Part shown: in pieces, positions 2,168 through 42,401 of the stretch | Layout of the letters: every line of letters starts with the position of its first letter | Position numbering within the stretch: position 1 is the first letter of the stretch | Program-made: the position numbers and the translations under genes | Notes under the pieces: model-generated | What the model saw: only the letters and a program-made list of their open reading frames with translations | Databases searched by the model: none | What the model was told of the DNA's origin: nothing | Origin: a virus | Virus record (IMG/VR): IMGVR_UViG_3300027969_000046 | Length of the DNA: 64,000 bases | Strand: one strand, 5' to 3'

Positions 2168-3013
2168 ATGAAAGATTTAGTGATTGGATGTACCACAAAT
2201 TATGATTGGAGTAAACTGAAGTATTGGGTTAACTCCATCAATAAATCAGGTTTTCAAGGCGAGAAAGTTATGGTCGCCTTTAACATTGATTATGAAACCA
2301 TTGAAAAATTATCTCAAGCTGGTTTTCAGGTTATTTTGCCTGGAAAACCGAACGAACAAGCACAGCGATATGAATATCAATCATCGTTGCCTGTCCATGT
2401 AGAACGCTTTGTTCACATCTACAATTACCTACAATCACACGACAACTATCGGTTTGTTATTACAACCGATGTTAAAGATGTAGTATTCCAAAAAGACCCT
2501 ACTAAGTTTCTTGGCATGGAATTGCCAGGTGCTAAGTTGATGTTTGCTTCCGAATCTATGAAGTATAAAGATGAGCCATGGGGCAATCAGAACTTAATGG
2601 AAACATTTGGTCCCTTTTTCCATGAAAGATTCAAAGACAATATCATCTACAATGTAGGCGTTTTGGCAGGTCGTGGCGATGCGATGAGAGATTTATGTGC
2701 GATGATATTCGTTATGTCTGTTAATCGACCTATCCCAATCGTAGACCAGTCCACATTTAACTTTATGATTTCACAAGAGCCATATAAATCTGTTGCAAGA
2801 TATATGACCTCTGAAGAAGGTTGGGCTTGCCAACTAGGCACTACTGCCGATCCAAGTAAACTTGAACAGTTTAAACCTTTTTTGCTTGAACCCTCACCGA
2901 TTATGGTTGACGGCGAAGTTGCAACTTCAGCAGGAAAAGCCTTTACAATTGTTCATCAATATGATAGAGTACCAGAATGGAAAAAGGTTATAGAGGAAAA
3001 ATATAATGACTAA
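2168..3013 (+). CDS. Glycosyltransferase-like protein (GT-A)
   Basis: TDVKDVVFQ (DxxD), NVGVLAG, DQSTFN, VHQYDR; first gene of sugar operon. Confidence 0.6.
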   Translation: MKDLVIGCTTNYDWSKLKYWVNSINKSGFQGEKVMVAFNIDYETIEKLSQAGFQVILPGKPNEQAQRYEYQSSLPVHVERFVHIYNYLQSHDNYRFVITTDVKDVVFQKDPTKFLGMELPGAKLMFASESMKYKDEPWGNQNLMETFGPFFHERFKDNIIYNVGVLAGRGDAMRDLCAMIFVMSVNRPIPIVDQSTFNFMISQEPYKSVARYMTSEEGWACQLGTTADPSKLEQFKPFLLEPSPIMVDGEVATSAGKAFTIVHQYDRVPEWKKVIEEKYND

Positions 3014-4034
3014 AAGAGTATTAATTACAGGCGGTGCAGGTTTTATCGCCCACCACCTGATTGAAACAATCCTTGATAATACAGATTGGACAATCGTATC
3101 GCTTGACCGACTTGACTTTTCAGGCAATCTAAATCGCCTTGAAGATATTATGAAGAAGTATTCACCTGAGCAGAAGAAGCGAGTTGAGATTGTATTCCAT
3201 GATTTACGAGCTGAAGTAAACCCACAGACTGCTGGTCTAATTGGTGATTGTCAGTTAGTATTGCACCTTGCAGCTGGTTCTCATGTTGACCGCTCAATCG
3301 AATTCCCTATGGAGTTTGTGCAAGACAATGTAATTGGTACAGTTAATCTGTTACAGTTTGCTCGCACACTAAAGAACTTAGAAAAGTTTGTTTACTTCTC
3401 AACAGATGAAGTATTTGGTCCCGCACCTGAAGGTGTTGACTACAAAGAAAGAGACCGCTACAATGCTACGAATCCATATTCAGCATCTAAGGCGGCAGGT
3501 GAAGAAATGTGTGTTGCATTTGAAAACACATACAATATGCCAATCATCGTTACTCATACAATGAATGTGTTTGGTGAACGCCAACATCCTGAAAAGTTTA
3601 TTCCTAAGGCCATTCGGTATGCTCGTGATGGTTTAACACTTACTATCCATTCAGACAGAAACAAAACAAAGGCAGGTTCACGCCACTATGTTCATGCTAA
3701 AGATGTTGCAGATGGTTTGATGTTTATTCTTAATCTGCCTGAAGATTATGCTCGCATTCCTGATTTTGGTGGTGCGAAGATTCCTAAGTTTAACATTGTT
3801 GGTCCCGATGAAGTAGATAACTTAGAGTTGGCTAAACTAATTGCAGAAGCACAAAATAAGGAACTCAAATATGAAATGGTTGACTTTCATTCATCCAGAC
3901 CTGGCCACGATTTACGTTACGCTCTTTCTGGTGATTATATGGCATCTCTAGGATGGAAACCAAAGATTTCGTTGCGTGAACGAATCAAAGGTATGGTTCA
4001 ATGGTCATTAGAAAATGATAAGTGGCTAAAATGA
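3006..4034 (+). CDS. rfbB: NDP-glucose 4,6-dehydratase (RmlB/RfbB family)
   Basis: TGGAGFIA, HLAAGSHVDRS, STDEVFG, PYSASK, HPEKFIP, RPGHDLRY. Confidence 0.9.
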   Translation: MTKRVLITGGAGFIAHHLIETILDNTDWTIVSLDRLDFSGNLNRLEDIMKKYSPEQKKRVEIVFHDLRAEVNPQTAGLIGDCQLVLHLAAGSHVDRSIEFPMEFVQDNVIGTVNLLQFARTLKNLEKFVYFSTDEVFGPAPEGVDYKERDRYNATNPYSASKAAGEEMCVAFENTYNMPIIVTHTMNVFGERQHPEKFIPKAIRYARDGLTLTIHSDRNKTKAGSRHYVHAKDVADGLMFILNLPEDYARIPDFGGAKIPKFNIVGPDEVDNLELAKLIAEAQNKELKYEMVDFHSSRPGHDLRYALSGDYMASLGWKPKISLRERIKGMVQWSLENDKWLK

Positions 4035-4735
4035 AAATAGCACTCTGTTTATCAGGACAACCTCGTAGTGTAAAACAAGGCTACGAGTTTGTTAAGAAGA
4101 ACATTTTGGACGGTAACGATGTTACCGTTTTTTGCCAAGTTTGGGAAGCAGATGGTGCAGAAGATTTAAACCTTTATAAGCCAGAAGTTGTGTTTATGGA
4201 GAAATCATTAAACACCGACCTATCAAAATACACCAATGTTCCGCCACCGCAACCAAACTGGAAAGTAAAAGACCCAGCTCGTTCCACTTGGAATCAGTTG
4301 TATGCTCTTAAAGTAGCAAACACACTTAAATCGGTGTATGAACAGAATGAAAATATGAAATTTGATTGGGTCATTCGTAGTCGTTATGACTTTGCAATCA
4401 ATGTTAAGATTCCATTTGCAGAACTAGATAATAGTAAACTGTATATTCCAAATTGCAGGCAAGTTCCTAATCGTGATTTTGGTAATGACCAGTTTGCCTT
4501 TTCATCTTCAGAAAACATGGACAAGTATGCTGACACATACACACACTTAGATAGATTCTATGATAGTGGCATACAGATGATGTGTGAAGATATGATGAGT
4601 GCTAATTGGAAAGAAAAAGGCCTTGTTGGTGAAAACTTGGTGTATTGTAACATCAATCATCCATTTCCACCTGGTGCTTACAATGGCACATGGCACAGTT
4701 TAATTCGTGAGGACTTTGAGCAATGGCTGCGTTAA
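4031..4735 (+). CDS. Putative glycosyltransferase-like protein
   Basis: KIALCLSGQPR, FDWVIRSRYD, NDQFAF motifs typical of phage/capsule sugar-locus proteins. Confidence 0.55.
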   Translation: MKIALCLSGQPRSVKQGYEFVKKNILDGNDVTVFCQVWEADGAEDLNLYKPEVVFMEKSLNTDLSKYTNVPPPQPNWKVKDPARSTWNQLYALKVANTLKSVYEQNENMKFDWVIRSRYDFAINVKIPFAELDNSKLYIPNCRQVPNRDFGNDQFAFSSSENMDKYADTYTHLDRFYDSGIQMMCEDMMSANWKEKGLVGENLVYCNINHPFPPGAYNGTWHSLIREDFEQWLR

Positions 4736-5445
4736 TAGTTTGTATGGCTGGTTTGAACACCAGATTCCATGATGTGGGTTTTGATATACCAAAGTATCTA
4801 TTACCTTGGGGTGAAGAAACAATCATCCATGAAATTCTTAAACAATTAGGTAAGTTTGATGAGGTCTTGTTGTTGGCTAATAAGCGTGATGCTTATTTTA
4901 TGCCTGATTTGGTAAAGACTATTGAACCACTTGGTCTCACTAAAGATAACATTCATTACATTGGTGATACAAGTGGTCAAGCACACACCGCATACATTGG
5001 TGCTTCATTATTGAAAGACAGATTTCAACCATTCTTTGTTCATAATGCTGATACACTATTGGTTGGTAGAAATTTCAAAGATATTGAATCTGTAATGTCT
5101 GATGGTTATGTTGATGTGTTTGTTGCCAACAATCCAAAATACTCTTATGTTAGGTCAAAAGATGGTATTGTGACTGAGATTGTTGAAAAGTCTGCTATCT
5201 CACCATTCGCAAGTTCTGGTTTGTATGGTTTTTATAGTGCTGAATTGTATCAACAAATGTATGAGGCACTATCACAAGGCTTTACTGGTAAAGAAATGTA
5301 TATTGCTAATGTGTTAGATTACATGATAAAGAATAATAAGTTTGTTGGTCTAAATGAATTGAACAATGAATATGAAACAATAGTTCTTGGTAGTCCACAA
5401 GAATATGGACTTGAATTGGCTAAAAAGAGTTTAAAGTTAAGATGA
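4723..5445 (+). CDS. Sugar/cyclitol-phosphate nucleotidyltransferase (NTP_transferase fold)
   Basis: MAGLNTRF...PKYLL, GQAHT, HNADT, IVEK, SSGLYGF, LGSP. Confidence 0.8.
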   Translation: MAALIVCMAGLNTRFHDVGFDIPKYLLPWGEETIIHEILKQLGKFDEVLLLANKRDAYFMPDLVKTIEPLGLTKDNIHYIGDTSGQAHTAYIGASLLKDRFQPFFVHNADTLLVGRNFKDIESVMSDGYVDVFVANNPKYSYVRSKDGIVTEIVEKSAISPFASSGLYGFYSAELYQQMYEALSQGFTGKEMYIANVLDYMIKNNKFVGLNELNNEYETIVLGSPQEYGLELAKKSLKLR

Positions 5446-6404
5446 AGATTACTAAGTTAAAAGGTGGTTCTTTAAGTAGCACATCTTTGTATGAAGATGG
5501 TAATAACAAATTCATTCGTAAAGCTATTAGCACAAAAGATAACCGAGAGTATGGTTATGTTCGTTGGTATTCTCAGTTAAAGAAACTACAACGATTTGCT
5601 GGAACAGGTTTATACCCTAAAGTTTTAAAAGTTGGCACCACAGATAATGGTGCATACTTTGATATTGAATATCTCAAAGGTTATAGAGATATTAAAACTA
5701 TCCTTTCAGAAGATACTTTAACTGTTCCACAAATTGAACAGATTAATGAGGCTGTCTGGCGGTCTTTTGATAATCACCATCGTAAAATGTATTTGCCAGT
5801 TAATGGTGCAGGTGCATTGTATTTCAAAGAAGAAGTTATACAGAAACTATCCGATGCCTTTAAATATCAGAAGTTTTACAATTTCTATGAATCTGGTTTA
5901 TTGGATTCTTTTGAATACAATGGTCGTATCACACATGGCATTCAAAACTTTTTACCAGAACTAAAAAACTTCTTTGATGAACTTAATTTCACCACAGAAG
6001 AAACCATTCATGGTAATCCAACGCTTGAGAATATGATGTATTCTTTTGATGATGATAGAGTAGTTTTTATTGACCCATATGAAGAAAGTTGTATTGATTC
6101 TCGCCTCTTAGATTATTCACAAGTGTTACAATGTTCAAGAAGTTATTATGGTCACATAAATGATAATGAAGTAACAGTAGATGGCCCATCTGTTGGATAT
6201 CATGGTGAGATACCAAATAATTTTATCGTATTCAATAAACGATTTGAAGATAGAATTGACCCAGCGGATAGAAAAACTGTTGATGTATTAGAGGCAACAC
6301 AATTCATTCGTATGTTACCATTCAAGTGTGCAGCTGGTGAGATGGAGAAGGCGATGTTCTTCTATGTTCATGCTTGCCACCTATTAAGTAGAGCTTTCAA
6401 ATAA
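5442..6404 (+). CDS. APH/choline-kinase-fold sugar or cyclitol kinase
   Basis: Gly loop LKGGSLS, HGNPTLENMM, FIDP. Confidence 0.7.
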   Translation: MKITKLKGGSLSSTSLYEDGNNKFIRKAISTKDNREYGYVRWYSQLKKLQRFAGTGLYPKVLKVGTTDNGAYFDIEYLKGYRDIKTILSEDTLTVPQIEQINEAVWRSFDNHHRKMYLPVNGAGALYFKEEVIQKLSDAFKYQKFYNFYESGLLDSFEYNGRITHGIQNFLPELKNFFDELNFTTEETIHGNPTLENMMYSFDDDRVVFIDPYEESCIDSRLLDYSQVLQCSRSYYGHINDNEVTVDGPSVGYHGEIPNNFIVFNKRFEDRIDPADRKTVDVLEATQFIRMLPFKCAAGEMEKAMFFYVHACHLLSRAFK

Positions 6405-7546
6405 TGGAAAATGTATTAACTAAATTCGACAATTATAAACGCACATGGTCTGTCAAGGCAGAACTACCAATTGAGTTTACACTAAAGTATTCTAGTGATG
6501 TATTCAATTGGAGTAATCACGACCTGTTGAGTTTTAGTGAGTCCAATCGTAGAGTGGTTGTTATAGACCAGACTGTATATAAACTATATGGTCAACAATT
6601 AGAAGATTACTTTAAAACATTTCAAATAGAATTGAAGTTGTTTATCATAGATGCCACAGAAGAAAAGAAAGATTGGCCACACACAGACCAAATTTTAAGG
6701 TTCTTTGAAGAAGTTGGTGTTTTGCGTAGAGAAGCAATCATTGTTATTGGTGGTGGTGTTCTACTAGACTTGGTTGGTTTCTGTTGTTCAATTTATCGCA
6801 GAGGCATTCCTTACATTAAAGTGCCAACTACATTGTTGGCTATTGTAGATGCTTCAGTTGGTGTTAAAGTTGCAGCTAACCACTTTGGTCGTAGAAATCG
6901 TATCGGTGCATATTATCCACCAATTGCCACATTACTAGACAAGAAGTTTATTGCTACACAAGATGAAAGAAACATTGTTAATGGTATTGCAGAGATATTT
7001 AAACTTGCAGTAATCAAAGATAAAGAATTGTTTGAGTTGTTAGAAACAAGTGCAGAACAATTAATCACCGAAAAGTTTCAATTTGGTGCGGTACCAGTTC
7101 GTGTAATCAATTCTGCCATTACAGGTATGATTGAAGAATTGGCACCAAACCTATGGGAAAGAAAACTAGACCGATGTGTTGACTTTGGCCATTCGTTTAG
7201 TCCTATTATTGAAATGCAGAATGTTGCTACATTACAACATGGTGAGGCGGTTGTATTAGATTGCCTGTTGAGTTCTTGCTTGGCTAATGTCCGTGGTTAT
7301 ATTGATACTGAAACACTACAAAGAATATTTAAGACAGCACACAGTTTAAAATTGCCTGTATTCCATAAAGATTTCTGTAATTTTGATTTGCTTAAAAAGT
7401 CATTATCTGATACAATGAAACATAGAAATGGTAATCAATACTTACCTGTTCCTGTTGGCATTGGTAACTATAAAATATTAAATGATGTAACTGATGATGA
7501 GATAAAGAAAGCTTCAGATATATTTGAAGAAGTTAAATATGAATAA
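6404..7546 (+). CDS. Sedoheptulose 7-phosphate cyclase, 2-epi-5-epi-valiolone synthase type (ValA/AcbC-like)
   Basis: GGGVLLD, YRRG, PTTLLAIVDASVGVK, NRIGAYYPP, AEIFK, MIEELAPNLWE..LDRCVDFGHSFSP, HGEAV. Confidence 0.88.
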   Translation: MENVLTKFDNYKRTWSVKAELPIEFTLKYSSDVFNWSNHDLLSFSESNRRVVVIDQTVYKLYGQQLEDYFKTFQIELKLFIIDATEEKKDWPHTDQILRFFEEVGVLRREAIIVIGGGVLLDLVGFCCSIYRRGIPYIKVPTTLLAIVDASVGVKVAANHFGRRNRIGAYYPPIATLLDKKFIATQDERNIVNGIAEIFKLAVIKDKELFELLETSAEQLITEKFQFGAVPVRVINSAITGMIEELAPNLWERKLDRCVDFGHSFSPIIEMQNVATLQHGEAVVLDCLLSSCLANVRGYIDTETLQRIFKTAHSLKLPVFHKDFCNFDLLKKSLSDTMKHRNGNQYLPVPVGIGNYKILNDVTDDEIKKASDIFEEVKYE

Positions 7547-8216
7547 GACCATTTTGATTACTGGCACCACAAGTGGTGTTGGTGCAACAATCGCATATGA
7601 TTACATTGAGAAAGGTTGGAATGTAATTGGTCTTGCTCGTGGTGAATCTTTATTTGATTATGCAAACTACAAACACTTTCAAGTTGATGTTGGCAATCCA
7701 TACCACTTGAATGAAGTGTTTGAACAGATTGGTAATAAGAACATTGATATTCTAGTTAATAATGCAGCTGTGTTTAAGATGAAACCATTTTCACAAACCA
7801 GTATTGATGAGATTGATGATATGATTGATATTAATCTTAAAGGTGCCATGTATGTAACTAAGTTTGCATTACAGAATATGGAAAAAGGTAGTCGTATATT
7901 CTTTATTAATTCGGTGGCAGGCCTTGAAGAACTAGAAAATCAATCAGCATATTGTTCCTCTAAACATGGTCTTACAGGATTTGCTGGTGTTCTTGGTCAA
8001 GAGTTACGGCCAAGAGGCATTAAAGTAACAAGTATCCATCCAGGCGGTATTGATACGCCATTATGGAGTAGAGATATACCTTACCCGTGTGGTGATGTGA
8101 GTAAGGCAATATCACCAATGGAACTTGTGAAAGTAATTGATTTCGTGTATAATAGCCAATTCAATATTGAATACAAGACTATTAAAATGTTTCCTGATAC
8201 AGAGTGGCATAAATGA
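7539..8216 (+). CDS. Short-chain dehydrogenase/reductase
   Basis: TGTTSGVG, NNAA, NSVAG, YCSSK, HPGGIDT. Confidence 0.9.
   Translation: MNKTILITGTTSGVGATIAYDYIEKGWNVIGLARGESLFDYANYKHFQVDVGNPYHLNEVFEQIGNKNIDILVNNAAVFKMKPFSQTSIDEIDDMIDINLKGAMYVTKFALQNMEKGSRIFFINSVAGLEELENQSAYCSSKHGLTGFAGVLGQELRPRGIKVTSIHPGGIDTPLWSRDIPYPCGDVSKAISPMELVKVIDFVYNSQFNIEYKTIKMFPDTEWHK
8125..8153 (+). promoter_or_regulatory. Possible internal sigma70 promoter
   Basis: TTGTGA-17-TATAAT upstream of ATG 8213. Confidence 0.35.
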
Positions 8217-8926
8217 TTATACCAAGTACCGACTTATTCATTGTAACATCTGCTTTGAGAACGAGCATTGGTGTTATTGATGATGAAACGAGATTAAAAC
8301 AAACAATAGAAGGCCTGCAATCATTACGCAAGGCCGCACCTGATGCCATTATCCTATGGGTAGATGCTTCGTCCAAAATGGTTGATGAAGCAACAATGGT
8401 TACAGTAAGTCAATATTGTGATAGAAGTATCAGTTTCTTTGGTGATGAAGATTTAATGACGCTTGCAAATGCAGGCCTCAAATCACAAGCAGAAGTTACT
8501 TTATTGTTTAAGACACTAGGTATTATTAAACAACATCCTGAATTACAGAAGATGATGGCTGGTGTTCGTAGAGTGTTTAAGCTATCTGCTAGAACCAATA
8601 TGCTTGAGGGTTATGACCCTAAGGTATATGATAATCTATATGGTAAGTATGTGTTTAAGAAAAGAATACCATCTTGGTTGCCACCATATAAACAAGTGGA
8701 ATCTGATTGTAACCATCTATACATAACTAGGATGTATTCATTCTGTGTATCATTGATTGATAACTATTTGCATATTCTACCAGAAATATACCGAACAGTT
8801 AATGAATTTGGTGTAGATACAGAACACGCACATTTTGGTAACACAGACAAAAATTTAACTGTTGAATTTGAAAATTTATATTGTGAAGGAGTTTTGGCAG
8901 GAAATGGCCAGACAGAAAGATATTAA
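8213..8926 (+). CDS. Hypothetical, possibly glycosyltransferase-like
   Basis: FIVTSAL, RLKQT, VDAS, FKLSAR; coupled inside the operon. Confidence 0.55.
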   Translation: MIIPSTDLFIVTSALRTSIGVIDDETRLKQTIEGLQSLRKAAPDAIILWVDASSKMVDEATMVTVSQYCDRSISFFGDEDLMTLANAGLKSQAEVTLLFKTLGIIKQHPELQKMMAGVRRVFKLSARTNMLEGYDPKVYDNLYGKYVFKKRIPSWLPPYKQVESDCNHLYITRMYSFCVSLIDNYLHILPEIYRTVNEFGVDTEHAHFGNTDKNLTVEFENLYCEGVLAGNGQTERY

Positions 8927-10212
8927 TGATTGACGAAAAAATACAAGAACTAGCTAAACTTGCTAGACCAAAATATTTACAGAATTACGACAACTTCAAA
9001 CCTGGCGAAGATTATGTAATGTATTCTGGCCAATTGTGGGACGAAAGAGAGATGGAACTTTCTCTTAAAGCATTCCTTACAGGCAAATGGGTTTCAGCAG
9101 GTGAGAATGTTGAGAAGTTTCAGATTAAATTCTCCAAGAAATACAATGTCAAAGCCTCACACATGGTCAATTCTGGTTCATCTGCCAACTTGGTGATGAT
9201 TGCAGGTGTTAAGAAACATTTGAAATGGGAAGATGGCGATGAAGTCATCGTATCACCTGTTGGTTTTCCAACCACAATTGCACCATTGGTTCAGAACAAT
9301 CTTAAACCAGTATTTGTTGATATTGAGTTTGATACATTAAATTTTGATGTTAATAAGATTGAAGCGAAGATTACTTCAAAGACTAAAGCAATTATTGTAT
9401 CTCCTGTGATGGCCAATCCGCCTGACATGGATATAATCCATGATATCTGTTACAGAAACAATTTAGTATTGATTGGTGATAATTGTGATTCACTAGGTAC
9501 AAAATGGAATGGTAAACTGTTGACAGATTTGTATTACTGCTGGTCAACTTCATTCTATCCCGCACACCACATCTCAACAGGCGAAGGTGGCATGGTATCA
9601 TCTAATGATAGCTTGTTGATTGATACTGTTAGGTCATTCAGTTGGTGGGGTCGTGATTGTTACTGCATTGGTTCTAACAATCAACTTCCATGTGGCACTT
9701 GCGGTAACCGATTCGACAGATGGTTGCCAGGCTATGATGGCATTATTGACCACAAATATATCTTTGCAAACATGGGTTACAATTTGAAACCACTTGATAT
9801 GCAAGGTGCAATTGGTATTGCTCAGTTAGAAAAGGTTGATTACATTGACCAGAAACGCAGAGAACATAAACTAAGATTGGCTAAATTATTGACGGACAAT
9901 CTAAATGTCCGTGTTGCTGATAAACTAGAGCAATCAGACCCATCTTGGTTCGGTGTTCCAATTATCTGTGAAACACAAGAGATTAAAGAGAAGTTGGTTG
10001 CACACTTTGAAGCCAATAAAATTCAGACACGAAACTATTTTGCTGGTAACATCTTGTTACATCCAGGTTACAATCACTTAGATGATTCTAGTAAATATCC
10101 ATTAGCAAACAAAGCACTATCTCATGTCTTTATCTTGGGCTGCCCTCCATTTTGGAATGATGCTGTGTTTAAATATATTGAAAAGGTGATTAAAGATGCC
10201 AAGTCCATCTAA
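8926..10212 (+). CDS. rfbH: NDP-4-keto-6-deoxyglucose 3-dehydrase (RfbH/E1; PMP and [2Fe-2S])
   Basis: NSGSSANL, DNCDSLG, SFYPAHHISTGEGG (His at the PLP-Lys position), GRDCYC...CGTC, DHKY, GYNLK. Confidence 0.88.
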   Translation: MIDEKIQELAKLARPKYLQNYDNFKPGEDYVMYSGQLWDEREMELSLKAFLTGKWVSAGENVEKFQIKFSKKYNVKASHMVNSGSSANLVMIAGVKKHLKWEDGDEVIVSPVGFPTTIAPLVQNNLKPVFVDIEFDTLNFDVNKIEAKITSKTKAIIVSPVMANPPDMDIIHDICYRNNLVLIGDNCDSLGTKWNGKLLTDLYYCWSTSFYPAHHISTGEGGMVSSNDSLLIDTVRSFSWWGRDCYCIGSNNQLPCGTCGNRFDRWLPGYDGIIDHKYIFANMGYNLKPLDMQGAIGIAQLEKVDYIDQKRREHKLRLAKLLTDNLNVRVADKLEQSDPSWFGVPIICETQEIKEKLVAHFEANKIQTRNYFAGNILLHPGYNHLDDSSKYPLANKALSHVFILGCPPFWNDAVFKYIEKVIKDAKSI

Positions 10213-11023
10213 ATTTCAAATATTTGGTGGTTCAGGTTTTGTTGGTTCTGAATTGGTTAAACAAATTGAAAACTGTATTGTAACTCCACGCCGTGATTAT
10301 ACAGTAGAAGGTTGTGATATCATTTATTTGATTTCAACTGTTAGTAACTACAATGTTAAAACAGACCCTCTTATTGACATTGACACCAATTTAACAACTC
10401 TTATGCAGGTGTTAAGACAATGTAAAGATAGAAATTTGACATTCAATTTTATTAGTTCATGGTTTGTTTATGGTGAAACTGAAATGCCTGCAACGGAAGA
10501 ATCAAATTGTTATCCAAATGGATTTTATTCAATCACTAAACGCTGTGCCGAGCAACTACTAATTTCTTATTGTGAAACCTTTGGCATCAAATATCGTATT
10601 CTCCGTCTTGCCAATGTGGCAGGTAGTGGTGATAAGAAAGCCTCACCACAAAAGAACGCACTTCAACATATGATTAATGAATTGAAGGCAGGCCGTGATG
10701 TGAATGTGTATGATGGTGGGAATCTATTCCGTGACTACATCCATGTTAACGATGTTGCTACGGCAATTAAGACCATCGTGGAAAAAGGCGAAGTTAATAC
10801 CATCTATAATGTGGGCAATGGCAAACCTATGTTGTTTAAAGATATGATTGAGTATGCCAAAGAGTTAATTGGCGGTGAAGGCAAATTAAATCCAATTGAA
10901 ATTCCGCAGTTCCATCGCACGGTACAAGTTCGTAGTATGTGGATGCTCAGCGACAAACTTAAATCGCTTGGGTACGAGCCAAAATACGATTTGAAGGCTA
11001 TCATTGAAGATATGGTTCGATGA
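10196..11023 (+). CDS. NAD-dependent sugar epimerase/4-ketoreductase
   Basis: GGSGFVG, SSWFVYG, YSITK, RDYIHV. Confidence 0.85.
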   Translation: MPSPSKFQIFGGSGFVGSELVKQIENCIVTPRRDYTVEGCDIIYLISTVSNYNVKTDPLIDIDTNLTTLMQVLRQCKDRNLTFNFISSWFVYGETEMPATEESNCYPNGFYSITKRCAEQLLISYCETFGIKYRILRLANVAGSGDKKASPQKNALQHMINELKAGRDVNVYDGGNLFRDYIHVNDVATAIKTIVEKGEVNTIYNVGNGKPMLFKDMIEYAKELIGGEGKLNPIEIPQFHRTVQVRSMWMLSDKLKSLGYEPKYDLKAIIEDMVR

Positions 11024-11667
11024 ATCTTAAAATCTATCAAGCATACTATGATTCGGTACAGTTACCTAACTTAGACCCCGTATTCATACCTTACGATAAT
11101 ACCGCAAACGATGCTCCTGAAATGCGTGAGTTGCCTATGTGGCGAAAACTCTTAGAGAAACATAAAGATTCTGATGCTCATTGGGGTTTATTATCTTGGA
11201 GATGGTTACATAAAACAGGATTGCCGCCATATCAGTTCAGAGATTGGATACAAGAAAATCCTGGCTACGATGTATATCATTTCGACCCATTCAAACATTT
11301 AGCTGATGAATATCCAAATTTATGGGTGCAAGGTGATAGATGGCATCCAGGCATGATTAACTTTGCGAACAGATTATTTCCAAAAATTGGTATTGATACA
11401 CCAGTTGAGCAATTTAAATATCTACCAGAAGATTTTGGAAGTTGTAATTATTTCATTGGTAATAGTAAATTTTGGAAAAATTACCTGTCTTTTCTTGACC
11501 TATGTCTAAGAACTTGTGAAGAAGATGTAGCTCTAAGCAACTACATATACAAAGAAGGTCAAACATATAATGGCCATTTTCTTCCATATTTTTCATTTGT
11601 AATAGAAAGATTGTTTTCTATTCATAACATATTGAACCGTGATATTACAGTTAAAAGATACCCATGA
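11020..11667 (+). CDS. Hypothetical, GT-like sugar-locus protein
   Basis: IYQAYY, GLLSWR, CNYFIG, FVIERLFS; ATGA coupling. Confidence 0.5.
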   Translation: MNLKIYQAYYDSVQLPNLDPVFIPYDNTANDAPEMRELPMWRKLLEKHKDSDAHWGLLSWRWLHKTGLPPYQFRDWIQENPGYDVYHFDPFKHLADEYPNLWVQGDRWHPGMINFANRLFPKIGIDTPVEQFKYLPEDFGSCNYFIGNSKFWKNYLSFLDLCLRTCEEDVALSNYIYKEGQTYNGHFLPYFSFVIERLFSIHNILNRDITVKRYP

Positions 11668-12443
11668 TTAATGAATTTGATTACGAAAAACTGAATAAAG
11701 AGTATAATGATGGCAAACCGTTTCGCCATGTGGTGATTGACAATTTCTTTGATGATGAAACAGCATTGAAATTATCTTCTGAATTTCCTGATTTTAATGA
11801 CCCAATCATTTGGTCTGTATATAAGAGTCCAATTGAGAACAAGAAATTGACTCCTAATTGGGATTTGTTTCCTAAAGAAACATACAAGGCCTTTTCGTTG
11901 ATGAATACACCAGAGTTTGTGGACAAAGTCCGTAAAATTACTGGTATTAATAATTTAGAAGCTGATTATGGACTACATGGTGGCGGTTGGCATATGACTG
12001 CTCGTGGTGGTAAATTGAATATGCATAAAGACTATTCAATTCATCCAAAACTAGGTAAAGAAAGACGAATCAATATCATCATCTACATGACACCAGAATG
12101 GCAAGAAGAATGGAATGGTGGTTTAGAATTCTGGTCACATAATGAAGAAAAGAATCTTCCAAAAGAGTGTGTAACCAAAGTATTCAATAAATTTAATAGT
12201 GCGGTTCTATTTGATACCGCAGACAATTCATGGCATGGTCTGCCAACAGAACTCCAATGTCCTGATGGCGTCTATCGCAAGTCATTGAATATCTACTATG
12301 TTTCAGAAGCTCGTCAAGAAGCAGAGAAACACGATAGAGCCATGTTTGCCCCCTATGGAGAACAAGCAAACAATCCCGATATACTTGAACTTATTAAGAA
12401 AAGGTCTAGTTCCAAGACATCTGCTGATACATATAGAACCTAA
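11664..12443 (+). CDS. 2OG-Fe(II) oxygenase
   Basis: PFRHVVIDNFF, HKD, WNGGLE, SWHG, RKS. Confidence 0.85.
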   Translation: MINEFDYEKLNKEYNDGKPFRHVVIDNFFDDETALKLSSEFPDFNDPIIWSVYKSPIENKKLTPNWDLFPKETYKAFSLMNTPEFVDKVRKITGINNLEADYGLHGGGWHMTARGGKLNMHKDYSIHPKLGKERRINIIIYMTPEWQEEWNGGLEFWSHNEEKNLPKECVTKVFNKFNSAVLFDTADNSWHGLPTELQCPDGVYRKSLNIYYVSEARQEAEKHDRAMFAPYGEQANNPDILELIKKRSSSKTSADTYRT

Positions 12444-12448: not shown

Positions 12449-12456
12449 TATAAATA
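12449..12456 (+). promoter_or_regulatory. T4-type late promoter TATAAATA
   Basis: Exact gp55 consensus in intergenic gap before 12496. Confidence 0.8.
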
Positions 12457-12495: not shown

Positions 12496-14775
12496 ATGAA
12501 ATTTAGAGATTTTATACTAGAAGCAACAGAGAAGCACGCCGTCATGGCCTTTGGAAGGATGAACCCTCCAACGACTGGTCATGCCAAATTGGTCGATAAG
12601 GTCAAAGAGGTTGCTGCTGAACACAAAGCTTCACATCATGTGGTATTATCTCATTCTCAGGATGCTAAAAAGAATCCTCTCTCCGCTAAAGACAAACTGA
12701 AACACGCAAAGCGTTTCTTCCCAAACACCAATCTGTCCACTTCAGATTCGGAACATCCAACTTTCCTACATCATGCTGCTAAATTACACAAACAAGGTGT
12801 AACGCATTTGCACATGGTTGCTGGTTCTGACCGCACAGACGAATATAAGAAAAAGTTGGCTCAGTATAATGGAAAACACGAAGGTGCATTATTCAATTTT
12901 AAAAAGATTACTGTTCATTCTTCTGGTGAAAGAGATCCTGATGCTGAAGGCACAGAAGGAATGTCAGCCTCCAAAATGAGAGGTCATGCTTCAACAAGTA
13001 ACTTTAAAGAATTTAAGAAAGGTATTCCTGGCCATGTACCTGAACACCATGCAAAAGAATTAATGCACGATGTTCGTAAAGGTATGGGACTTAAAGAAAG
13101 TGTAGATGAACTCTTTGAAGAATTGTTAACTGAAGGTGTGCATGACAAAGGCATTTTTAAGGCAGTATTCTTAGCAGGTGGTCCTGGTTCTGGTAAAGAT
13201 TATGTTTTAGATAACACACTTGCTGGCCACGGCATGACCGAGATTAACTCTGATAAAGCATTAGAGTTTTTGATGGACAAAAAAGGCCTTAATAAGACCA
13301 TGCCTGCTTCTGAAAAAGTTGCAAGAGATGTTGAGCGTGGTAAGGCCAAGAACATGACCGAGTTACGCCAAAGATTGGCACTACATGGTCGTAATGGTGT
13401 TATCATCAACGGTACTGGTGATGATGCTGAAAAGATTAAAAAAATTAAAAGTCGTTTAGAAGAACTTGGTTACGATACTGCCATGATTATGGTTAATACT
13501 CGTGATGAAGTATCTGCTTCACGAAATGTTGAAAGAGGTCAAAGAGGTGGTAGAAGTGTACCTGAAACCATCCGTAAACAGAAATGGCAATCGGTACAAG
13601 ATTCAAGAGCAGACTTAGCAAAACTATTTGGTGACAAGTATGTTGAGTTTGATAACTCTGAAGATTTAAGAAGTGCCAAACCAGAAATTGTGCAAGCTAA
13701 GAAAGAAGAAATGTTGAATATCTATAAAGGTGTTCAGAAGTTTATTAAAACTCCACCTAAAGCACCACAAGCAAAAGAATGGATTGGCCAAGAATTAGAA
13801 AAGAGTGATAAATTGCCTGTCAACACCAAAGTTGATTCTATGCCACATCCTAATAGTGGTGCAGCTGATGAAGCTCGTAAGATGGGATTACAATATTATG
13901 GTTTTGGTCGTTATGGTAAAGATGGTAAAGTTACATTCCGTTCTGTCCATGATAAATTACAACAAGTTAAACCTGATGAACCAAAGGTAACTCCATTGCA
14001 AACAAAACCAGTTGCTAAGAAAGTCAACGAAGAATTTGAAAACGAATTTGCTAATCCTTTGTTAGAATCAGCACTTGATAAGTTCCGTGCTGCTGCAGCT
14101 GAGAGAGAAAAGAAACACAATGAGATTGAGGCTAAACGCAAAGAAGCTGAAAAACAAGGTAAAGAAAATATGTCTGGCTCTATTGACCGTTTAGAGAAAC
14201 ATTTAAATAAAGAATCACATGAAATAAATCATAAGAGTTTATTGAAGGATACACACGGCAAAGTAAGAACATTTATGCTTCGCCGTTCTGCTGCTAAAGA
14301 AGCCCACATAAATGGTGGTGTAGTCTATAAGCAAGGCAAGGGGTATGTAATTAAAATCAAGGAGAATGAAGATGTTAAAGTTAATCAAAAGTTTTTTCAA
14401 GAAAGCGGAAGAACCAACACCAGTAGTAGCACCGGAACCAGTAGTATCTCCGAAGCCGACTACCAATACCAAACCGGTAGTGACCTCGAAAACAGTCCCG
14501 TCAAAACCAAAATCACCCTCAACCAAATCCGCACCAAGAAAGAAAGTAAAGTAAAAGAGTCGATTGATAAGGGTATTGAACCTGGTATGTCTATGGCAGC
14601 TGGCGGAGAATCCATTGGTCGTGATATGGGCGAGAAGATTAAGAAGCGGAAGATTTCTGTTACTGAAATGCAAGGTGACGAAACTACCGCTTCTATCGGT
14701 GACCAAAAAGAAGATGAATTAAAGAAGAAAGGCATAGACCTTTTATCGTTCAGAAAAAGAAATTACGCACTATGA
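12496..14775 (+). CDS. Multidomain protein: HxGH nucleotidyltransferase (cytidylyltransferase-like) + zeta-toxin-like P-loop kinase + small modules
   Basis: MKFRDFILE; FGRMNPPTTGH, KNPL, VAGSDR, MSASKMR; LAGGPGSGK, INSD, RGGRSVP. Confidence 0.8.
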   Translation: MKFRDFILEATEKHAVMAFGRMNPPTTGHAKLVDKVKEVAAEHKASHHVVLSHSQDAKKNPLSAKDKLKHAKRFFPNTNLSTSDSEHPTFLHHAAKLHKQGVTHLHMVAGSDRTDEYKKKLAQYNGKHEGALFNFKKITVHSSGERDPDAEGTEGMSASKMRGHASTSNFKEFKKGIPGHVPEHHAKELMHDVRKGMGLKESVDELFEELLTEGVHDKGIFKAVFLAGGPGSGKDYVLDNTLAGHGMTEINSDKALEFLMDKKGLNKTMPASEKVARDVERGKAKNMTELRQRLALHGRNGVIINGTGDDAEKIKKIKSRLEELGYDTAMIMVNTRDEVSASRNVERGQRGGRSVPETIRKQKWQSVQDSRADLAKLFGDKYVEFDNSEDLRSAKPEIVQAKKEEMLNIYKGVQKFIKTPPKAPQAKEWIGQELEKSDKLPVNTKVDSMPHPNSGAADEARKMGLQYYGFGRYGKDGKVTFRSVHDKLQQVKPDEPKVTPLQTKPVAKKVNEEFENEFANPLLESALDKFRAAAAEREKKHNEIEAKRKEAEKQGKENMSGSIDRLEKHLNKESHEINHKSLLKDTHGKVRTFMLRRSAAKEAHINGGVVYKQGKGYVIKIKENEDVKVNQKFFQESGRTNTSSSTGTSSISEADYQYQTGSDLENSPVKTKITLNQIRTKKESKVKESIDKGIEPGMSMAAGGESIGRDMGEKIKKRKISVTEMQGDETTASIGDQKEDELKKKGIDLLSFRKRNYAL
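14372..14554 (+). CDS. Candidate overprinted small Pro/Lys-rich protein inside 12496-14775
   Basis: AAGGAG 14359-14364 is 7 nt before ATG 14372; MLKLIKSFFKKAEEPTPVVAPEP. Confidence 0.4.
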   Translation: MLKLIKSFFKKAEEPTPVVAPEPVVSPKPTTNTKPVVTSKTVPSKPKSPSTKSAPRKKVK

Positions 14776-21419: not shown

Positions 21420-22157
21420 ATGATTATTGGTTCAGGCATCACAATTGGTTCAGGTATTGGAATAGTGCCAATTCCTGTTTCTGGATTTAGCACAACCAAT
21501 TTGTTATTATATTTAAATGCAACAAATAGTTCCAGTTATTCTGGTTCCGGTACTGCTTGGAATGATTTAAGTGGTAACGCAGATAATGGAACATTAGTTG
21601 GTAGTCCAACATATACAGCAAGTCCAGGATATTTTACTTTTGCTGTAGGTAAATATGCATCAACAGGTGTAATTAATAGTGCTTTGACGGCCGCAACATT
21701 TATTGCTTGGGTATATCCAACACAAACGCAATCACAATATACTGGTGTTATTTTTAATAGAAATGGTTACGGCGGTGCAACTGCTTATGCAACTGGTATG
21801 AATTTTTATACAAGCAATTCTGTTGGGTATCATTGGAACGATAATGGTGCAACATATGGATGGAACTCTGGTTTATCTGCACCAAATAATGCTTGGTCAA
21901 TGATTGCTATAACTGTTAACTCTACTACTGCAACTGCTTACTTGTGTCAATCTAGTGGAATAACAACAGCAACAAATACATCTAGTCACTCGTCAACTTT
22001 ATCTGGACTTAGTTTTTATGTTGGTGTTGAACCATCTAGCACTTCTGGTAGAGCATTTAAAGGTAATATTTCACAGGCCGCAATATACAGCACAACATTA
22101 ATTTCTGATGAGATAACAACAAACTTTAATAATACAAAATCTATTTACGGTTTATAA
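21420..22157 (+). CDS. LamG/concanavalin-A-like domain protein (fiber or adhesin)
   Basis: LLLYLNA..SSSYSGSGT.W.DLSG, AWVYP, FKGNISQAAIY. Confidence 0.75.
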   Translation: MIIGSGITIGSGIGIVPIPVSGFSTTNLLLYLNATNSSSYSGSGTAWNDLSGNADNGTLVGSPTYTASPGYFTFAVGKYASTGVINSALTAATFIAWVYPTQTQSQYTGVIFNRNGYGGATAYATGMNFYTSNSVGYHWNDNGATYGWNSGLSAPNNAWSMIAITVNSTTATAYLCQSSGITTATNTSSHSSTLSGLSFYVGVEPSSTSGRAFKGNISQAAIYSTTLISDEITTNFNNTKSIYGL

Positions 22158-31535: not shown

Positions 31536-32528
31536 ATGACTAAAAAATCAGAATCAAAATTAACAGATACACGCAACAGTTTTAAACCCTTTAACTATCC
31601 ATGGGCATACGATGCTTGGCTTAAACACGAACAATCTCATTGGCTGCATACGGAAGTTCCTATGCTTGAAGATGTCAAAGATTGGAAAAAGAAACTCACC
31701 GCTGAAGAAAAACAATTTCTCACACACATTTTTAGATTCTTCACACAAGGAGATATTGACGTTGCTGGCGGTTATGTTCGCAATTATCTACCTTATTTCC
31801 CGCAACCTGAAGTAAGAATGATGCTCATGGGCTTTGCTGCTCGTGAAGCATTACATATTGCTGCTTACTCACACCTGATTGAAACATTAGGTTTGCCTGA
31901 TACAACCTATAATGATTTTATGGAATATCAGGAGATGAAAGACAAACACGATTATGTGCTTGACATTTCAGATAAGAATGGCACCAAAGAAAATACAGCA
32001 CGACATATTGCCGTGTTTAGTGCCTTTACAGAAGGTATGCAGTTGTTCAGCTCATTCATTATGTTACTTAATTTCCCTCGCATGGGTAAAATGAAAGGCA
32101 TGGGTCAGATTGTTACATGGTCTATTGTTGATGAAACCATGCACGCTGAATCAATGATGAAGTTGTTTAAGACCTACATCCACGAGAATACAGAAATTTG
32201 GAATGATGAATTGAAATCGTCCATCTATGCAATTGCAGAAAAGATGGTTGAACTTGAAGATAAGTTTATTGACCTTGCCTTTGGTGTAACAGAGATGGAA
32301 GGCCTGAGTGCTGAAGAAGTTAAAAAGTATATCCGATATATAGCTGACCGCAGACTGATTGGCCTTGGCATGAAAGGCATTTTTAAAGTAAAACGCAACC
32401 CTCTGCCATGGGTTGAAGAAATGATTAACGCACCTACTCACACAAACTTCTTTGAGAACCGTGCTACTGATTACGCTAAAGGCGCATTGAGTGGTTCTTG
32501 GGACGATGTATGGGGCAGAGCCGCCTAA
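31536..32528 (+). CDS. nrdB: Ribonucleotide reductase class Ia beta subunit
   Basis: GDIDV, REALHIAAY (radical Tyr), TEG, DETMH, NFFE. Confidence 0.95.
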   Translation: MTKKSESKLTDTRNSFKPFNYPWAYDAWLKHEQSHWLHTEVPMLEDVKDWKKKLTAEEKQFLTHIFRFFTQGDIDVAGGYVRNYLPYFPQPEVRMMLMGFAAREALHIAAYSHLIETLGLPDTTYNDFMEYQEMKDKHDYVLDISDKNGTKENTARHIAVFSAFTEGMQLFSSFIMLLNFPRMGKMKGMGQIVTWSIVDETMHAESMMKLFKTYIHENTEIWNDELKSSIYAIAEKMVELEDKFIDLAFGVTEMEGLSAEEVKKYIRYIADRRLIGLGMKGIFKVKRNPLPWVEEMINAPTHTNFFENRATDYAKGALSGSWDDVWGRAA

Positions 32529-33232
32529 TGTTAATTCTCTACACATTGGTAATGACACACATTACCATTCTTTGTGTTACAATGTATTTACATCGTAGCC
32601 AAGCACACCGAGCAGTAACATTTAATCCTGTAATAGAAAACATCATGCGATTTTGGCTATGGCTTACAACAGGCATGGTCACAAAGCAATGGGTTGCTAT
32701 ACACCGCAAGCACCATCAAATGACCGACCAACATGGTGACCCACATTCACCAAAAGTATTTGGTATTTGGCGTGTATTATTTGGTGGTGCAGTTCTATAT
32801 CATAAAGCATCAAAAGATAAATTGATGGTTGAAACATATGGCAAAGGAACGCCTGACGATTGGGTTGAGAAGAATATATACAGTAAACATTCTCGTCTAG
32901 GTATTACTTTGTTATTACTAATAAATTTACTTTGTTTTTCTTGGTGGGGTTTACTCACATGGGGAATTCAAATGATTTGGATCCCATTGTGGGCCGCAGG
33001 TGTGGTCAATGGTATTGGCCATTATTGGGGTTATCGTAACACAGAAACGAATGATACATCCAAAAACATTGTACCAATAGGTTTGATTATTGGTGGTGAA
33101 GAACTACATAACAACCATCACAATAAACCAGCAAGTGCAAAACTATCTGAAAAATGGTTTGAATTGGACATTGGATGGTTTTGGATTAAAACACTAAGTT
33201 ATTTGAAGTTAGCAAAAATCAACAGAGAATAA
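32528..33232 (+). CDS. Membrane fatty-acid (delta-9-type) desaturase
   Basis: His boxes HRSQAH, HRKHH, HNNHH; TM segments. Confidence 0.9.
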   Translation: MLILYTLVMTHITILCVTMYLHRSQAHRAVTFNPVIENIMRFWLWLTTGMVTKQWVAIHRKHHQMTDQHGDPHSPKVFGIWRVLFGGAVLYHKASKDKLMVETYGKGTPDDWVEKNIYSKHSRLGITLLLLINLLCFSWWGLLTWGIQMIWIPLWAAGVVNGIGHYWGYRNTETNDTSKNIVPIGLIIGGEELHNNHHNKPASAKLSEKWFELDIGWFWIKTLSYLKLAKINRE

Positions 33233-38175: not shown

Positions 38176-38735
38176 TTGAACTAGTTGAAGTTACTAGGCC
38201 AGACCAAAAAGGCCTAGTAAAATATATCATTGAGAACCACCACTCTTATGTACCGACCAATGCCTCAGTTGGTCGCCGTATTGATTGGCTCATCAATTAC
38301 GATGGGCAAACAGTTGGCATGATAGGCATTGGCTCATCGGTCTACCCACCCCCCAAAGATATACTCAATTACCTTGCTGTCAGTAAAAATGACTACAAGG
38401 CAATCTTCAACACTATTGCCAACAATTGGCGCTTTTGTATGATACAATCCATAAAGAACGGTGGTAGTCAGATATTGAAACAGTTGCGACAGAAGGCGCC
38501 AGATGCATGGAAGGCAAAATATGGTGATGACTTAGGTTACATCATTACTTTTGTTGGTGCAGGTAAGAATGGTGCAGTCTATCTTGCCGATAACTGGTCA
38601 AGAATTGGCGAAACCGCTGGTCTACCCAAGCACAAGAGTTCCTCTATGAAGTGGAATACTGGTGAACAATTGAAAGAACTATTTGTTAAGCCTACAGGTG
38701 AAAACAAGAAGATTATACTGATAAAGAAACTATGA
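38172..38735 (+). CDS. Mom/DruA(DUF4338)-like GNAT-fold protein
   Basis: HHSY, GMIGIGS, NNWRF, GAVYLADNW..IGET. Confidence 0.5.
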   Translation: MIELVEVTRPDQKGLVKYIIENHHSYVPTNASVGRRIDWLINYDGQTVGMIGIGSSVYPPPKDILNYLAVSKNDYKAIFNTIANNWRFCMIQSIKNGGSQILKQLRQKAPDAWKAKYGDDLGYIITFVGAGKNGAVYLADNWSRIGETAGLPKHKSSSMKWNTGEQLKELFVKPTGENKKIILIKKL

Positions 38736-41704: not shown

Positions 41705-41757
41705 CATAGGTAATGTTAGAGTGCAATTTCACAGTTAAATGCAAAAAGTAGCAAATG

Positions 41758-41912
41758 GTGTGAAAAAGTGGTAGAGAATTGGCATAGATAGGATAGTATT
41801 AGAATATAACATACCCACCACGCCTATCGTAGAAGCGCAACCTTGGTGGGTTTTTTATTGTGTAGAAAAGTGGTAAAAAGTGTGAAAAAGTGGTAGAGAA
41901 GTAGCATAGATA
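41758..41912. repeat. 33-bp imperfect direct repeat (41758-41790, 41880-41912) plus a partial third copy
   Basis: GTGTGAAAAAGTGGTAGAGAA identical in both, followed by TTGGCATAGATA / GTAGCATAGATA; AAAAGTGGTA also at 41866. Confidence 0.85.
41813..41857 (+). terminator. Long-loop hairpin with T tract
   Basis: ACCCACCA-23 nt-TGGTGGGT then T run. Confidence 0.65.
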
Positions 41913-41917
41913 ATTCC

Positions 41918-42232
41918 ATGCCGAATGTATATGCTAAGAAACAATGTCCGAATTGCAAAAAGACTCACAGAGGTCGTGGACAGTATTGCTGTATCTCATG
42001 TGGAATGACTGGCCGCACAGTATCCGCAGAGACCAGACTGAAATTATCTAAGAAGTCCACAGAGTATAGAAACACACCAGAGGGTATCGCAACAACCAAA
42101 ACCATTGCGAGAGTTACTGAGAAGCGCCACGATATCAATCAAAAAATCAAAGATGGTCATTATATACTAGAACCAGAGGACTATTATCTGGACATCTGGT
42201 CTAGTGAAGATGACGATAATATTAAGTTATAA
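41918..42232 (+). CDS. Zinc-finger / NUMOD3-like small protein
   Basis: CPNC...YCCISC, SAETRLKLS. Confidence 0.55.
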   Translation: MPNVYAKKQCPNCKKTHRGRGQYCCISCGMTGRTVSAETRLKLSKKSTEYRNTPEGIATTKTIARVTEKRHDINQKIKDGHYILEPEDYYLDIWSSEDDDNIKL

Positions 42233-42401
42233 TCATAGCACTACGGTCTGGTGCAATTCTATTCAATTCACTCTCATAAGCATCATATAAACTCTTAGCG
42301 GTTTTTGTGAGGCTCCCTTGTTGGTTCTTTCTCTCAATTAATTCTGATTGGGCAAGGTACAGAGCGTTATAGTATTGGTCTGGTGTCAGATTGATATTCA
42401 T
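42222..42401 (-). CDS. 59-aa hypothetical protein, the only well-supported minus-strand gene
   Basis: Minus-strand SD AAGGA before ATG and own promoter TTGACA-17-TAGGAT (42456-42428); MNINLTPDQYYNALYLAQSEL... Confidence 0.7.
   Translation of the reverse strand: MNINLTPDQYYNALYLAQSELIERKNQQGSLTKTAKSLYDAYESELNRIAPDRSAMIIT

Follow-up and report, generated by a model that had tools for sequence, protein, structure and literature searches.

Synthesis of a carbocyclic sugar by a bacteriophage is suggested by a 12-gene operon at positions 2168–12443 of a 64,000-nt sequence, given as one strand, from the IMG/VR virus record IMGVR_UViG_3300027969_000046 (the window, meaning the whole stretch of DNA that was analyzed). 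Four adjacent genes of this operon, g4 to g7, encode a nucleotidyltransferase, a kinase-like protein, a sugar phosphate cyclase of the EEVS type (EEVS, the synthase that forms 2-epi-5-epi-valiolone) and a short-chain dehydrogenase/reductase (SDR). Judged from their sequences, these proteins probably start from sedoheptulose 7-phosphate and give a "pseudo-sugar" of seven carbons that is activated by a nucleotide. The favored reading, which is held to be probable, is that the cassette makes a nucleoside diphosphate (NDP)-activated C7 cyclitol that is used for a carbasugar-containing glycan or glycoconjugate in early to middle infection.

The window is a portion of a tailed phage of about 160 kb, uncultured and of freshwater metagenome origin. 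The operon was found again, with a cyclase about 95% identical, on a 160,406-bp JGI contig and on a 162,042-bp IMG/VR contig. The latter (G001), with a cyclase of 94% identity, is rated 95% complete, carries the operon in synteny with the window and served for whole-genome questions. The phage is T4-like (Straboviridae-type) because G001 encodes a Gp23-family major capsid protein (PF07068, 470 bits). In agreement with the gap-free 12-gene operon described in the initial annotation, the listing of open reading frames (ORFs) places 12 genes, all on the plus strand, between 2168 and 12443, where neighbors abut or overlap by 1–23 nt and no intergenic gap is left.

The cyclase and its four-gene cassette

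The cyclase g6 (6404..7546) has the two-domain architecture of dehydroquinate synthase-like proteins (DHQ_synthase, PF01761, at 3.7e-33; DHQS_C, PF24621, at 6.9e-21). In comparisons with solved structures it reaches 300 bits for ValA (4P53), the EEVS of validamycin synthesis, 221 for the DDGS of cyanobacteria (5TPR), at most 135 for AroB and 81 for DOIS. The identity to ValA is about 50%. The protein falls under all curated aroB model cutoffs, including that of TIGR01357 aroB (217 bits vs. a cutoff of 305). Leu267, Asp281 and His360 of ValA are replaced by Glu, Ala and Thr in DDGS, and two of these sites are functionally important (PMC10666671). In the alignment of g6 with ValA, where the chain index is shifted by six residues relative to the ValA numbering, L246, D260 and H340 of g6 occupy these sites, and all three are of the EEVS type. 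The initial annotation had separated the cyclase from AroB and DDGS by the motifs MIEELAPNLWE and LDRCVDFGH. Both are present in g6, and the three residues show that the argument from MIEEL and VDFGH was correct. The three sites that distinguish EEVS from DDGS are invariant in the alignment A5; the L-D-H triplet occurs in 231 of 278 aligned relatives and V-N-V in 12 of 20 AroB rows. Of the 150 best representatives of 50% clusters, not one has the DDGS triplet. Placement in a cyclase tree had been set beforehand as a check, and the maximum-likelihood tree of EEVS-type and AroB sequences separated 63 EEVS-type sequences from AroB with a support of 100. All 10 viral cyclases formed one clade (support 98) together with a sequence from a Gammaproteobacteria metagenome-assembled genome (MAG) and one metagenomic protein. 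By its sequence, then, g6 is a predicted sedoheptulose-7-phosphate cyclase of the EEVS type, and the identity of about 50% to ValA together with the L-D-H triplet favors EEVS over 2-epi-valiolone synthase (EVS).

The distribution of the genes was surveyed by tblastn of the window proteins against all fetched viral loci. The counts refer to those 31 distinct viral contigs in which the flanks of the cyclase extend over 4.6 kb or more upstream and 5.2 kb or more downstream. The kinase-like g5, the cyclase g6 and the SDR g7 were present in 31/31 contigs and the nucleotidyltransferase g4 in 30/31, so that the four-gene core for which the initial annotation had proposed a survey of viral contigs does recur, and it recurs in many bacteria as well. 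Three more genes, g1, g3 and g8, each accompany the four-gene unit in 25/31 contigs. The other genes are less frequent: g12 was found in 10/31, g9 to g11 in 8/31 and g2 in 6/31 contigs, and the full set of twelve genes in 6/31. Five contigs carry the four-gene unit in different contexts and without the other core genes, and one carries kinase, cyclase and SDR without the nucleotidyltransferase. The architecture is thus nested, with the four-gene cassette g4–g7 inside a seven-gene core that adds g1, g3 and g8, and with an accessory module outside it. Identity across the surveyed contigs ranges from 54 to 97% and the frames are intact. Related islands carry alternative genes, namely a Methyltransf_24/CmcI-like methyltransferase, a DUF4422 protein, a small cytidylyltransferase-like protein or the deoxysugar module. 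This swapping of accessory genes between related phages resembles the pattern of glycan-diversifying loci. A relative of the cyclase is encoded on 118 IMG/VR stretches, from which 80 distinct contigs were examined, and matching metagenomic proteins number in the thousands. The four-gene route is abundant in freshwater phage populations.

The enzymes encoded around the cyclase differ in how readily they are recognized. The SDR g7 (7539..8216) is a classical member of its family (adh_short, 5e-41). Its longest ORF starts from TTG at 7524, and the ATG at 7539 agrees with the gene calls of its relatives. Its place directly downstream of the cyclase is kept in 31/31 viral contigs and in the majority of the cassettes from bacteria. 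The compact sugar-phosphate nucleotidyltransferase g4 (4723..5445, 240 aa) matches the NTP_transferase family (PF00483) at 2.8e-7 and phrog_3980 at 4e-29; its sole match in the PDB is the NDP-sugar pyrophosphorylase 4EVW (8.6e-16). This gene adjoins the cyclase in bacterial cassettes. The third protein, g5 (5442..6404), had been called a kinase in the initial annotation. By sequence this identity is not recognizable (Pfam E = 0.009) and a comparison of folds was required, which does support a kinase fold. The predicted model (pLDDT 80) has a bilobal protein-kinase-like fold, and Foldseek matched it with a probability of 1.0 and TM values of up to 0.58 to FN3K, the choline kinase LicA, N-acetylhexosamine 1-kinase (NahK), APH(2'') and maltokinase. 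LicA superposes best, with a TM of 0.57–0.65. The atypical loop H-G-N-x-T-L-E-N was found in 17/17 viral and bacterial members examined, at identities down to 31%. In addition, an I-D-x-Y-E/D-E motif that comes after the loop is invariant and an R/L-K motif is conserved; from their sequences these would correspond to the metal-binding Asp motif (I-D-x-x-E) and to the beta-3 Lys, respectively. A relaxed search found no g5-like kinase beside actinomycete EEVS genes.

The cassette is also found in bacteria. An earlier single-protein pattern scan returned AroB genes only, and an alignment-based genome scan detected the four-gene cassette in at least eight lineages: Gammaproteobacteria, Magnetovibrionaceae, Myxococcota, Fibrobacterota, Balneolaceae, Desulfobulbaceae, Prochlorococcus and Polynucleobacter. 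The Gammaproteobacteria MAG contig CAZKAT010000005.1 (L063:6305-9816) has the cassette in phage gene order at 51–69% identity. This contig is chromosomal, with citrate synthase and permease genes close by; its cyclase falls within the viral clade of the tree, and its GC content is low (31–39%) and similar to that of the phage. This cassette may hint at the host lineage or at a recent exchange between phage and bacterium. In Polynucleobacter the cassette is flanked by ManC, GT2 and Wzz genes on one side and by GT9, GDP-mannose dehydratase (GMD) and RfbH-like genes on the other. The Balneolaceae cassette has as neighbors an ABC exporter, a GT2 gene, a HAD-nucleotidyltransferase fusion and a homologue of g3. 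The single-cell genome of Prochlorococcus sp. AG-424-E20 (L090:2613-6575) encodes the nucleotidyltransferase, the kinase-like protein and an EEVS-type cyclase; there an aldo-keto reductase substitutes for the SDR and a sulfotransferase gene lies upstream. The bacterial relatives include ROK-kinase::cyclase fusions and one cyclase::nucleotidyltransferase fusion, by which the cyclase, a kinase and a nucleotidyltransferase are linked independently. Overall, the cassette is exchanged between phages and bacteria, where it occupies surface-polysaccharide loci.

Proposed pathway and fate of the activated cyclitol

Three core proteins are candidates for the use of the cyclitol. The protein g1 (2168..3013, 281 aa) is a GT-A-like transferase candidate that matches Nucleotid_trans (PF03407) at E = 0.0035, which fails the cutoff, and the glycosyltransferase family phrog_1579 at 3.8e-8. 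The GT-A-fold protein g3 (4031..4735, alternative start at 4022) has a weak match to DUF7796, and a feature search of the Atlas also led to DUF7796 clusters. Its AlphaFold model (pLDDT 66) has GT6 retaining glycosyltransferases as top Foldseek matches (probability 1.0, TM ~0.45), and the homologue that adjoins the Balneolaceae cassette is 27% identical. The soluble protein g8 (8213..8926), possibly transferase-like, has no match in Pfam, NCBIfam, PHROG or PDB profiles. Its Atlas model (pTM 0.91) has DUF1647 as closest named fold (TM 0.67) and WavE and DUF7796 as closest by features, which are leads only. Sequence and profile searches of g1, g3, g8 and also g5 against the PDB found nothing significant, and profile-profile comparison of g1, g3 and g8, with shallow alignments, found no kinship among them. 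From profile matches and models, g1 and g3 look glycosyltransferase-like, and g8 is a lead only. The initial annotation had listed four glycosyltransferase-like ORFs; that description stands for g1 and g3, whereas g8 is left as a lead and g11, an accessory gene, gained no support.

The following route is proposed. The cyclase g6 would convert host sedoheptulose 7-phosphate to 2-epi-5-epi-valiolone, as its homology and diagnostic residues suggest. The SDR g7 would then reduce the ring ketone to an alcohol, and g5 would phosphorylate the new hydroxyl in the manner of the anomeric sugar kinases that share its fold. The nucleotidyltransferase g4 would couple the cyclitol phosphate to a nucleoside monophosphate (NMP), giving the NDP-activated C7 carbasugar. 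In this phage lineage the GT-A-like g1 and g3, together with g8, would build the product on a cytoplasmic acceptor. Diagnostic residues back the first step only; the second to fifth steps we infer from folds and conserved linkage. The substrate would come from the host. No transaldolase that could serve as a phage-encoded source of sedoheptulose 7-phosphate is present in G001. Since the cassette is shared with bacterial surface-polysaccharide loci, a carbasugar glycan or glycoconjugate is the most likely product. The timing is suggested by the surroundings of the operon, which consist of replication and nucleotide metabolism genes (DnaB, primase, ribonucleotide reductase (RNR)), and by the T4-type late-promoter box TATAAATA at 12449..12456 on the plus strand. 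This is the only exact copy in the 64-kb window, where 6.9 would be expected by chance, and it marks the boundary between the end of the sugar operon and a separate late gene. Because the sole exact box sits just 3' of the last operon gene, the operon looks early or middle and not late.

A more specific form of this proposal treats an NDP-carba-hexose as a true glycan building block, which phage and bacterial transferases would place in a surface or virion glycoconjugate. The acetal-free linkage would resist glycosidases and phage depolymerases, and in infection the phage could use it as a new coat of the host envelope that wards off superinfection or as armor for its own particle. This form is put forward tentatively, as a possibility that is rather doubtful; it would need either a new class of transferase that uses a saturated carbocyclic donor or new kinase-like chemistry at the H-G-N loop.

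Several observations weigh against the glycan reading as a whole. The invariant Asn of the g5 loop stands at the position of the catalytic Asp of the kinase superfamily (H-x-D-x-x-x-x-N), so that g5 may be no conventional kinase. The strict conservation of the loop from phage to bacteria nevertheless argues for an active site, possibly a non-textbook one. A profile match of g5 to the JAK2 pseudokinase domain also lines up H-G-N, at a non-significant E of 1.1. No epimerase or dehydratase family that would give an allylic, valienol-type donor was detected among the seven core genes, where the family-less g8 could be a novel enzyme, and displacement of the NDP from a saturated ring carbon would be chemically hard. 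The only characterized pseudoglycosyltransferases use GDP-valienol (PMC9200736), and g1, g3 and g8 are unlike known pseudoglycosyltransferases. The glycosyltransferase assignments themselves depend on weak profile matches and on a moderate model, the g3 prediction described above. None of the 12 operon proteins has a membrane segment, and genes for membrane proteins, a flippase or a polymerase are absent from the operon. Finally, the substrate of g4 might be a hexose 1-phosphate of the deoxysugar branch instead; the retention of g4 in the 22/31 contigs that lack g9 argues against such a role.

As a saturated donor is hard to displace, phosphodiester transfer on the model of LicA/LicC or CDP-ribitol is a serious rival, even if on balance an unlikely one. 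The NDP-cyclitol would then be used in the way of CDP-choline, CDP-ribitol or CDP-glycerol. Its phospho-cyclitol part would be moved to a glycan or protein with release of NMP, and the cyclitol decoration would be held by a phosphodiester and not by a pseudo-glycosidic bond. Such a transfer requires no activation of a ring carbon, which suits a pathway that has no dehydratase for an allylic donor. The choline kinase LicA, the best-superposing match of g5, has as its partner LicC, a cytidylyltransferase of ~230 aa from the NTP_transferase family, and this pairing parallels that of g5 with g4. Domain searches of the operon, however, detected none of the LicD, TagF and CDP-alcohol phosphotransferase families, and the fold of g3 resembles retaining GT-A glycosyltransferases.

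It is quite improbable that the product is instead a diffusible small molecule, such as an inhibitor of glycosidases or trehalases in the style of validamycin and acarbose or a sunscreen similar to gadusol. The characterized EEVS products are all small molecules (PMC12904256), and an NDP-cyclitol is an intermediate of acarbose synthesis (PMC9200736); the solubility of all 12 proteins and the variant islands with a methyltransferase or an oxygenase would also fit. On the other hand, gadusol needs neither a kinase nor a nucleotidyltransferase, and a ROK kinase, a 2-epimerase/dehydratase, a cyclitol aminotransferase, a GT20/GT5 pseudoglycosyltransferase and an MT-Ox fusion all went undetected in the operon. 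The glycosidase-inhibiting small molecule considered in the initial annotation also fails to explain why three transferase-like genes are conserved alongside the cassette and why in bacteria the cassettes belong to polysaccharide loci that include genes for Wzz, GT2, GT9 and ABC exporters.

The probability is very low that the activated carbasugar, with or without a deoxysugar, is put on phage DNA, as T4 glucosylates hydroxymethylcytosine. The T4-like nature of the phage, the position of the operon among early or middle replication genes, its lack of late promoters and its soluble proteins would suit such a function. The 95%-complete relative G001, however, has no hydroxymethylase of the thymidylate-synthase family (PF00303) and hence no hydroxymethyl-pyrimidine to glycosylate, which makes DNA, another target named in the initial annotation, unlikely. 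In addition, g1, g3 and g8 match no T4 glucosyltransferase family in Pfam or PHROGs, and the cassette also occurs in bacterial polysaccharide loci. Next to no weight is given to the reading of g6 as an ordinary AroB (dehydroquinate synthase) or DDGS beside an unrelated sugar island, for which its public annotation as 3-dehydroquinate synthase and the TIGR01357 score speak, and against which stand the sub-cutoff value of that score, the much higher score with ValA than with AroB structures, the three EEVS-type residues, the split from AroB in the tree and the linkage to kinase, SDR and nucleotidyltransferase across phyla and viruses.

Accessory genes and genomic setting

Domain searches support the 4,6-dehydratase, 3-dehydrase, reductase and 2-oxoglutarate (2OG) oxygenase that the initial annotation had placed around the core. 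The NDP-hexose 4,6-dehydratase g2 (3006..4034; GDP_Man_Dehyd/Epimerase, 4e-50) scores 238 bits on the dTDP-glucose 4,6-dehydratase model TIGR01181 (cutoff 365), which is higher than its score on the CDP-glucose model. The DegT protein g9 (8926..10212) is an NDP-4-keto-6-deoxyhexose 3-dehydrase of the E1/RfbH type, dependent on pyridoxamine phosphate and an Fe-S cluster, with 361 bits to RfbH (NF011936, cutoff 423) and 238 bits to E1 (3BCX). Its F-Y-P-A-H-H segment aligns to wild-type E1 (3BCX), unlike the H220K mutant (3BB8), so that His replaces the Schiff-base Lys of the aminotransferases, and the Cys cluster for the 2Fe-2S center is kept, with Cys residues following W-G-R-D. The short extended-SDR NDP-sugar reductase/epimerase g10 (10196..11023; Epimerase, 9e-34) is intact, with GGSGFVG and YSITK motifs. 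The unassigned g11 (11020..11667), which co-occurs with g9 and g10, has no family match in Pfam, PHROGs or NCBIfam and no similarity to the DUF4422 gene of the variant island. The last gene, g12 (11664..12443), encodes a 2OG-Fe(II) oxygenase (PF13640, 4e-14) as an accessory tailoring enzyme.

In this phage g2, g9 and g10 might supply an optional second donor, an NDP-3,6-dideoxyhexose, through the successive action of 4,6-dehydratase, E1-type 3-dehydrase and reductase, and g11 and g12 would tailor. Searches for NAD_binding_1 and Fer2 domains found no E3-type reductase or ferredoxin in the operon or in G001, and a host reductase would therefore be required in place of E3. With deoxysugar genes in only 6–10 of the 31 contigs, this branch is accessory and not core. 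The proposal of the initial annotation that the carbasugar is joined with a deoxysugar does not hold in general, as about one in four related contigs has the deoxysugar module.

The sugar island has constant flanks in this phage clade. Upstream, positions 252–1505 encode a DUF6267 protein (371 bits). Downstream, behind the TATAAATA box, positions 12496–14775 encode a 759-aa protein in which a cytidylyltransferase-like (HxGH) domain is joined to a P-loop kinase of the zeta-toxin/AAA_33 kind; its C-terminal half has no assignment. PHROG 455 matches DUF6267 and the cytidylyltransferase part alike, which indicates that fused forms exist. A 245-aa protein at 21420–22157 with a concanavalin-A-like lectin/glucanase domain (Laminin_G_3, 7e-14) could be a carbohydrate-binding protein with a bearing on a glycan function. 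An unusual auxiliary gene for a phage, encoding a fatty-acid-desaturase-family protein (PF00487, 5e-16), lies at 32498–33232, with the RNR small subunit on one side and a nuclease/PhoH region on the other. Positions 38700–47100 have no ORF of 120 aa or longer on either strand and are densely packed with about 30 small plus-strand ORFs (45–117 aa); this run of small ORFs is typical for T4-like early regions, and the GC skew climbs to 0.30 at 44–48 kb. Three tRNA genes (Met-CAT, Glu-TTC, Cys-GCA) are found at 48718–49935.

Relation to known systems

In antibiotics and antidiabetic drugs (acarbose, validamycin) C7 cyclitols serve as warheads; they also occur as sunscreens (gadusol), and they are regarded as secondary metabolites. 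Of the known systems, the GDP-valienol branch of acarbose and validamycin synthesis (cyclase AcbC/ValA, kinases AcbM/ValC and AcbU, AcbL/AcbN, nucleotidyltransferase AcbR/VldB, pseudoglycosyltransferase AcbS/VldE) comes closest. Common to both is an EEVS acting on sedoheptulose 7-phosphate, followed by redox, phosphorylation and nucleotidylation to an NDP-activated C7 cyclitol for a transferase (PMC9200736). In the GDP-valienol branch an epimerase and a dehydratase give an allylic donor, which pseudoglycosyltransferases of the GT20/GT5 type use (PMC9200736). The phage route has four genes as against about eight, and no ROK kinase (AcbM/ValC), 2-epimerase, valienol dehydratase or phosphatase was detected in the operon. 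Neither was a GT20 (VldE) or GT5 (AcbS) pseudoglycosyltransferase; g3 resembles a GT6-type GT-A protein instead. With these enzymes missing, the acarbose/validamycin logic that the initial annotation had seen in the gene order is not copied. The kinases differ too, that of the phage having an APH/choline-kinase fold with the loop Asn, and the phage nucleotidyltransferase is compact whereas that of the GDP-valienol branch is GlgC-like. The settings are likewise distinct: a virus and Gram-negative polysaccharide loci in one case, actinomycete secondary-metabolite clusters in the other.

Other relationships concern parts of the operon. Pairs of a kinase and a nucleotidyltransferase are known from LicA/LicC (choline to CDP-choline), AmgK/MurU and the NahK/GlmU type. 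As in pairs of the LicA/LicC type, the phage places a kinase-like protein of the APH/ChoK fold beside a short enzyme of the NTP_transferase family, an arrangement that activates an alcohol or sugar for a surface polymer. Unlike in LicA/LicC-type salvage, the substrate would be made de novo by the cyclase and reductase, and the Asp of the catalytic loop is replaced by Asn in every member. The accessory genes g2, g9 and g10 have their counterparts in the 4,6-dehydratase, E1 3-dehydrase and final reductase of the CDP-3,6-dideoxyhexose pathway (RfbF/G/H/I, DdhA-D; E1/E3), from which the phage module differs by the lack of E3 and ferredoxin, by a dehydratase nearer to the dTDP-glucose type and by being optional among relatives. 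Aquatic phages of the T4-like group, giant viruses and mycobacteriophages that glycosylate likewise have variable sugar islands, in which virus-encoded synthesis of activated sugars is combined with transferases. We know of no viral sugar-nucleotide/glycosyltransferase island with a carbocyclic sugar.

The initial annotation had known of no characterized phage pathway of this kind, and the searches made here are in accord with it. No EEVS-type gene was found in the INPHARED phage records, where the best matches were AroB at identities of at most 31%, and thus none in a cultured phage; no near-identical DNA was found among GenBank phages. Full-text literature searches returned nothing relevant on EEVS with phage or on carbasugar with bacteriophage, and a cyclitol review from 2026 is silent on both viruses and glycans (PMC12904256). 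New in the present analysis are the nested core/accessory architecture with its counts, the kinase-loop Asn that is invariant and the GT6-like fold of g3, together with the absence of membrane proteins, the early or middle placement of the operon and the chemical case for a phosphodiester alternative.

To our knowledge, antibiotics and sunscreens are the only other cases of cyclase-derived C7 pseudo-sugar chemistry. Should the product turn out to be part of a glycan, the short, soluble enzymes would make NDP-carbasugars, useful glycomimetic reagents, and would lead to transferases of unprecedented chemistry. Microbial surface chemistry would then gain a pseudo-sugar that is non-hydrolysable, and the conflict between phage and host at the cell surface a new kind of move.

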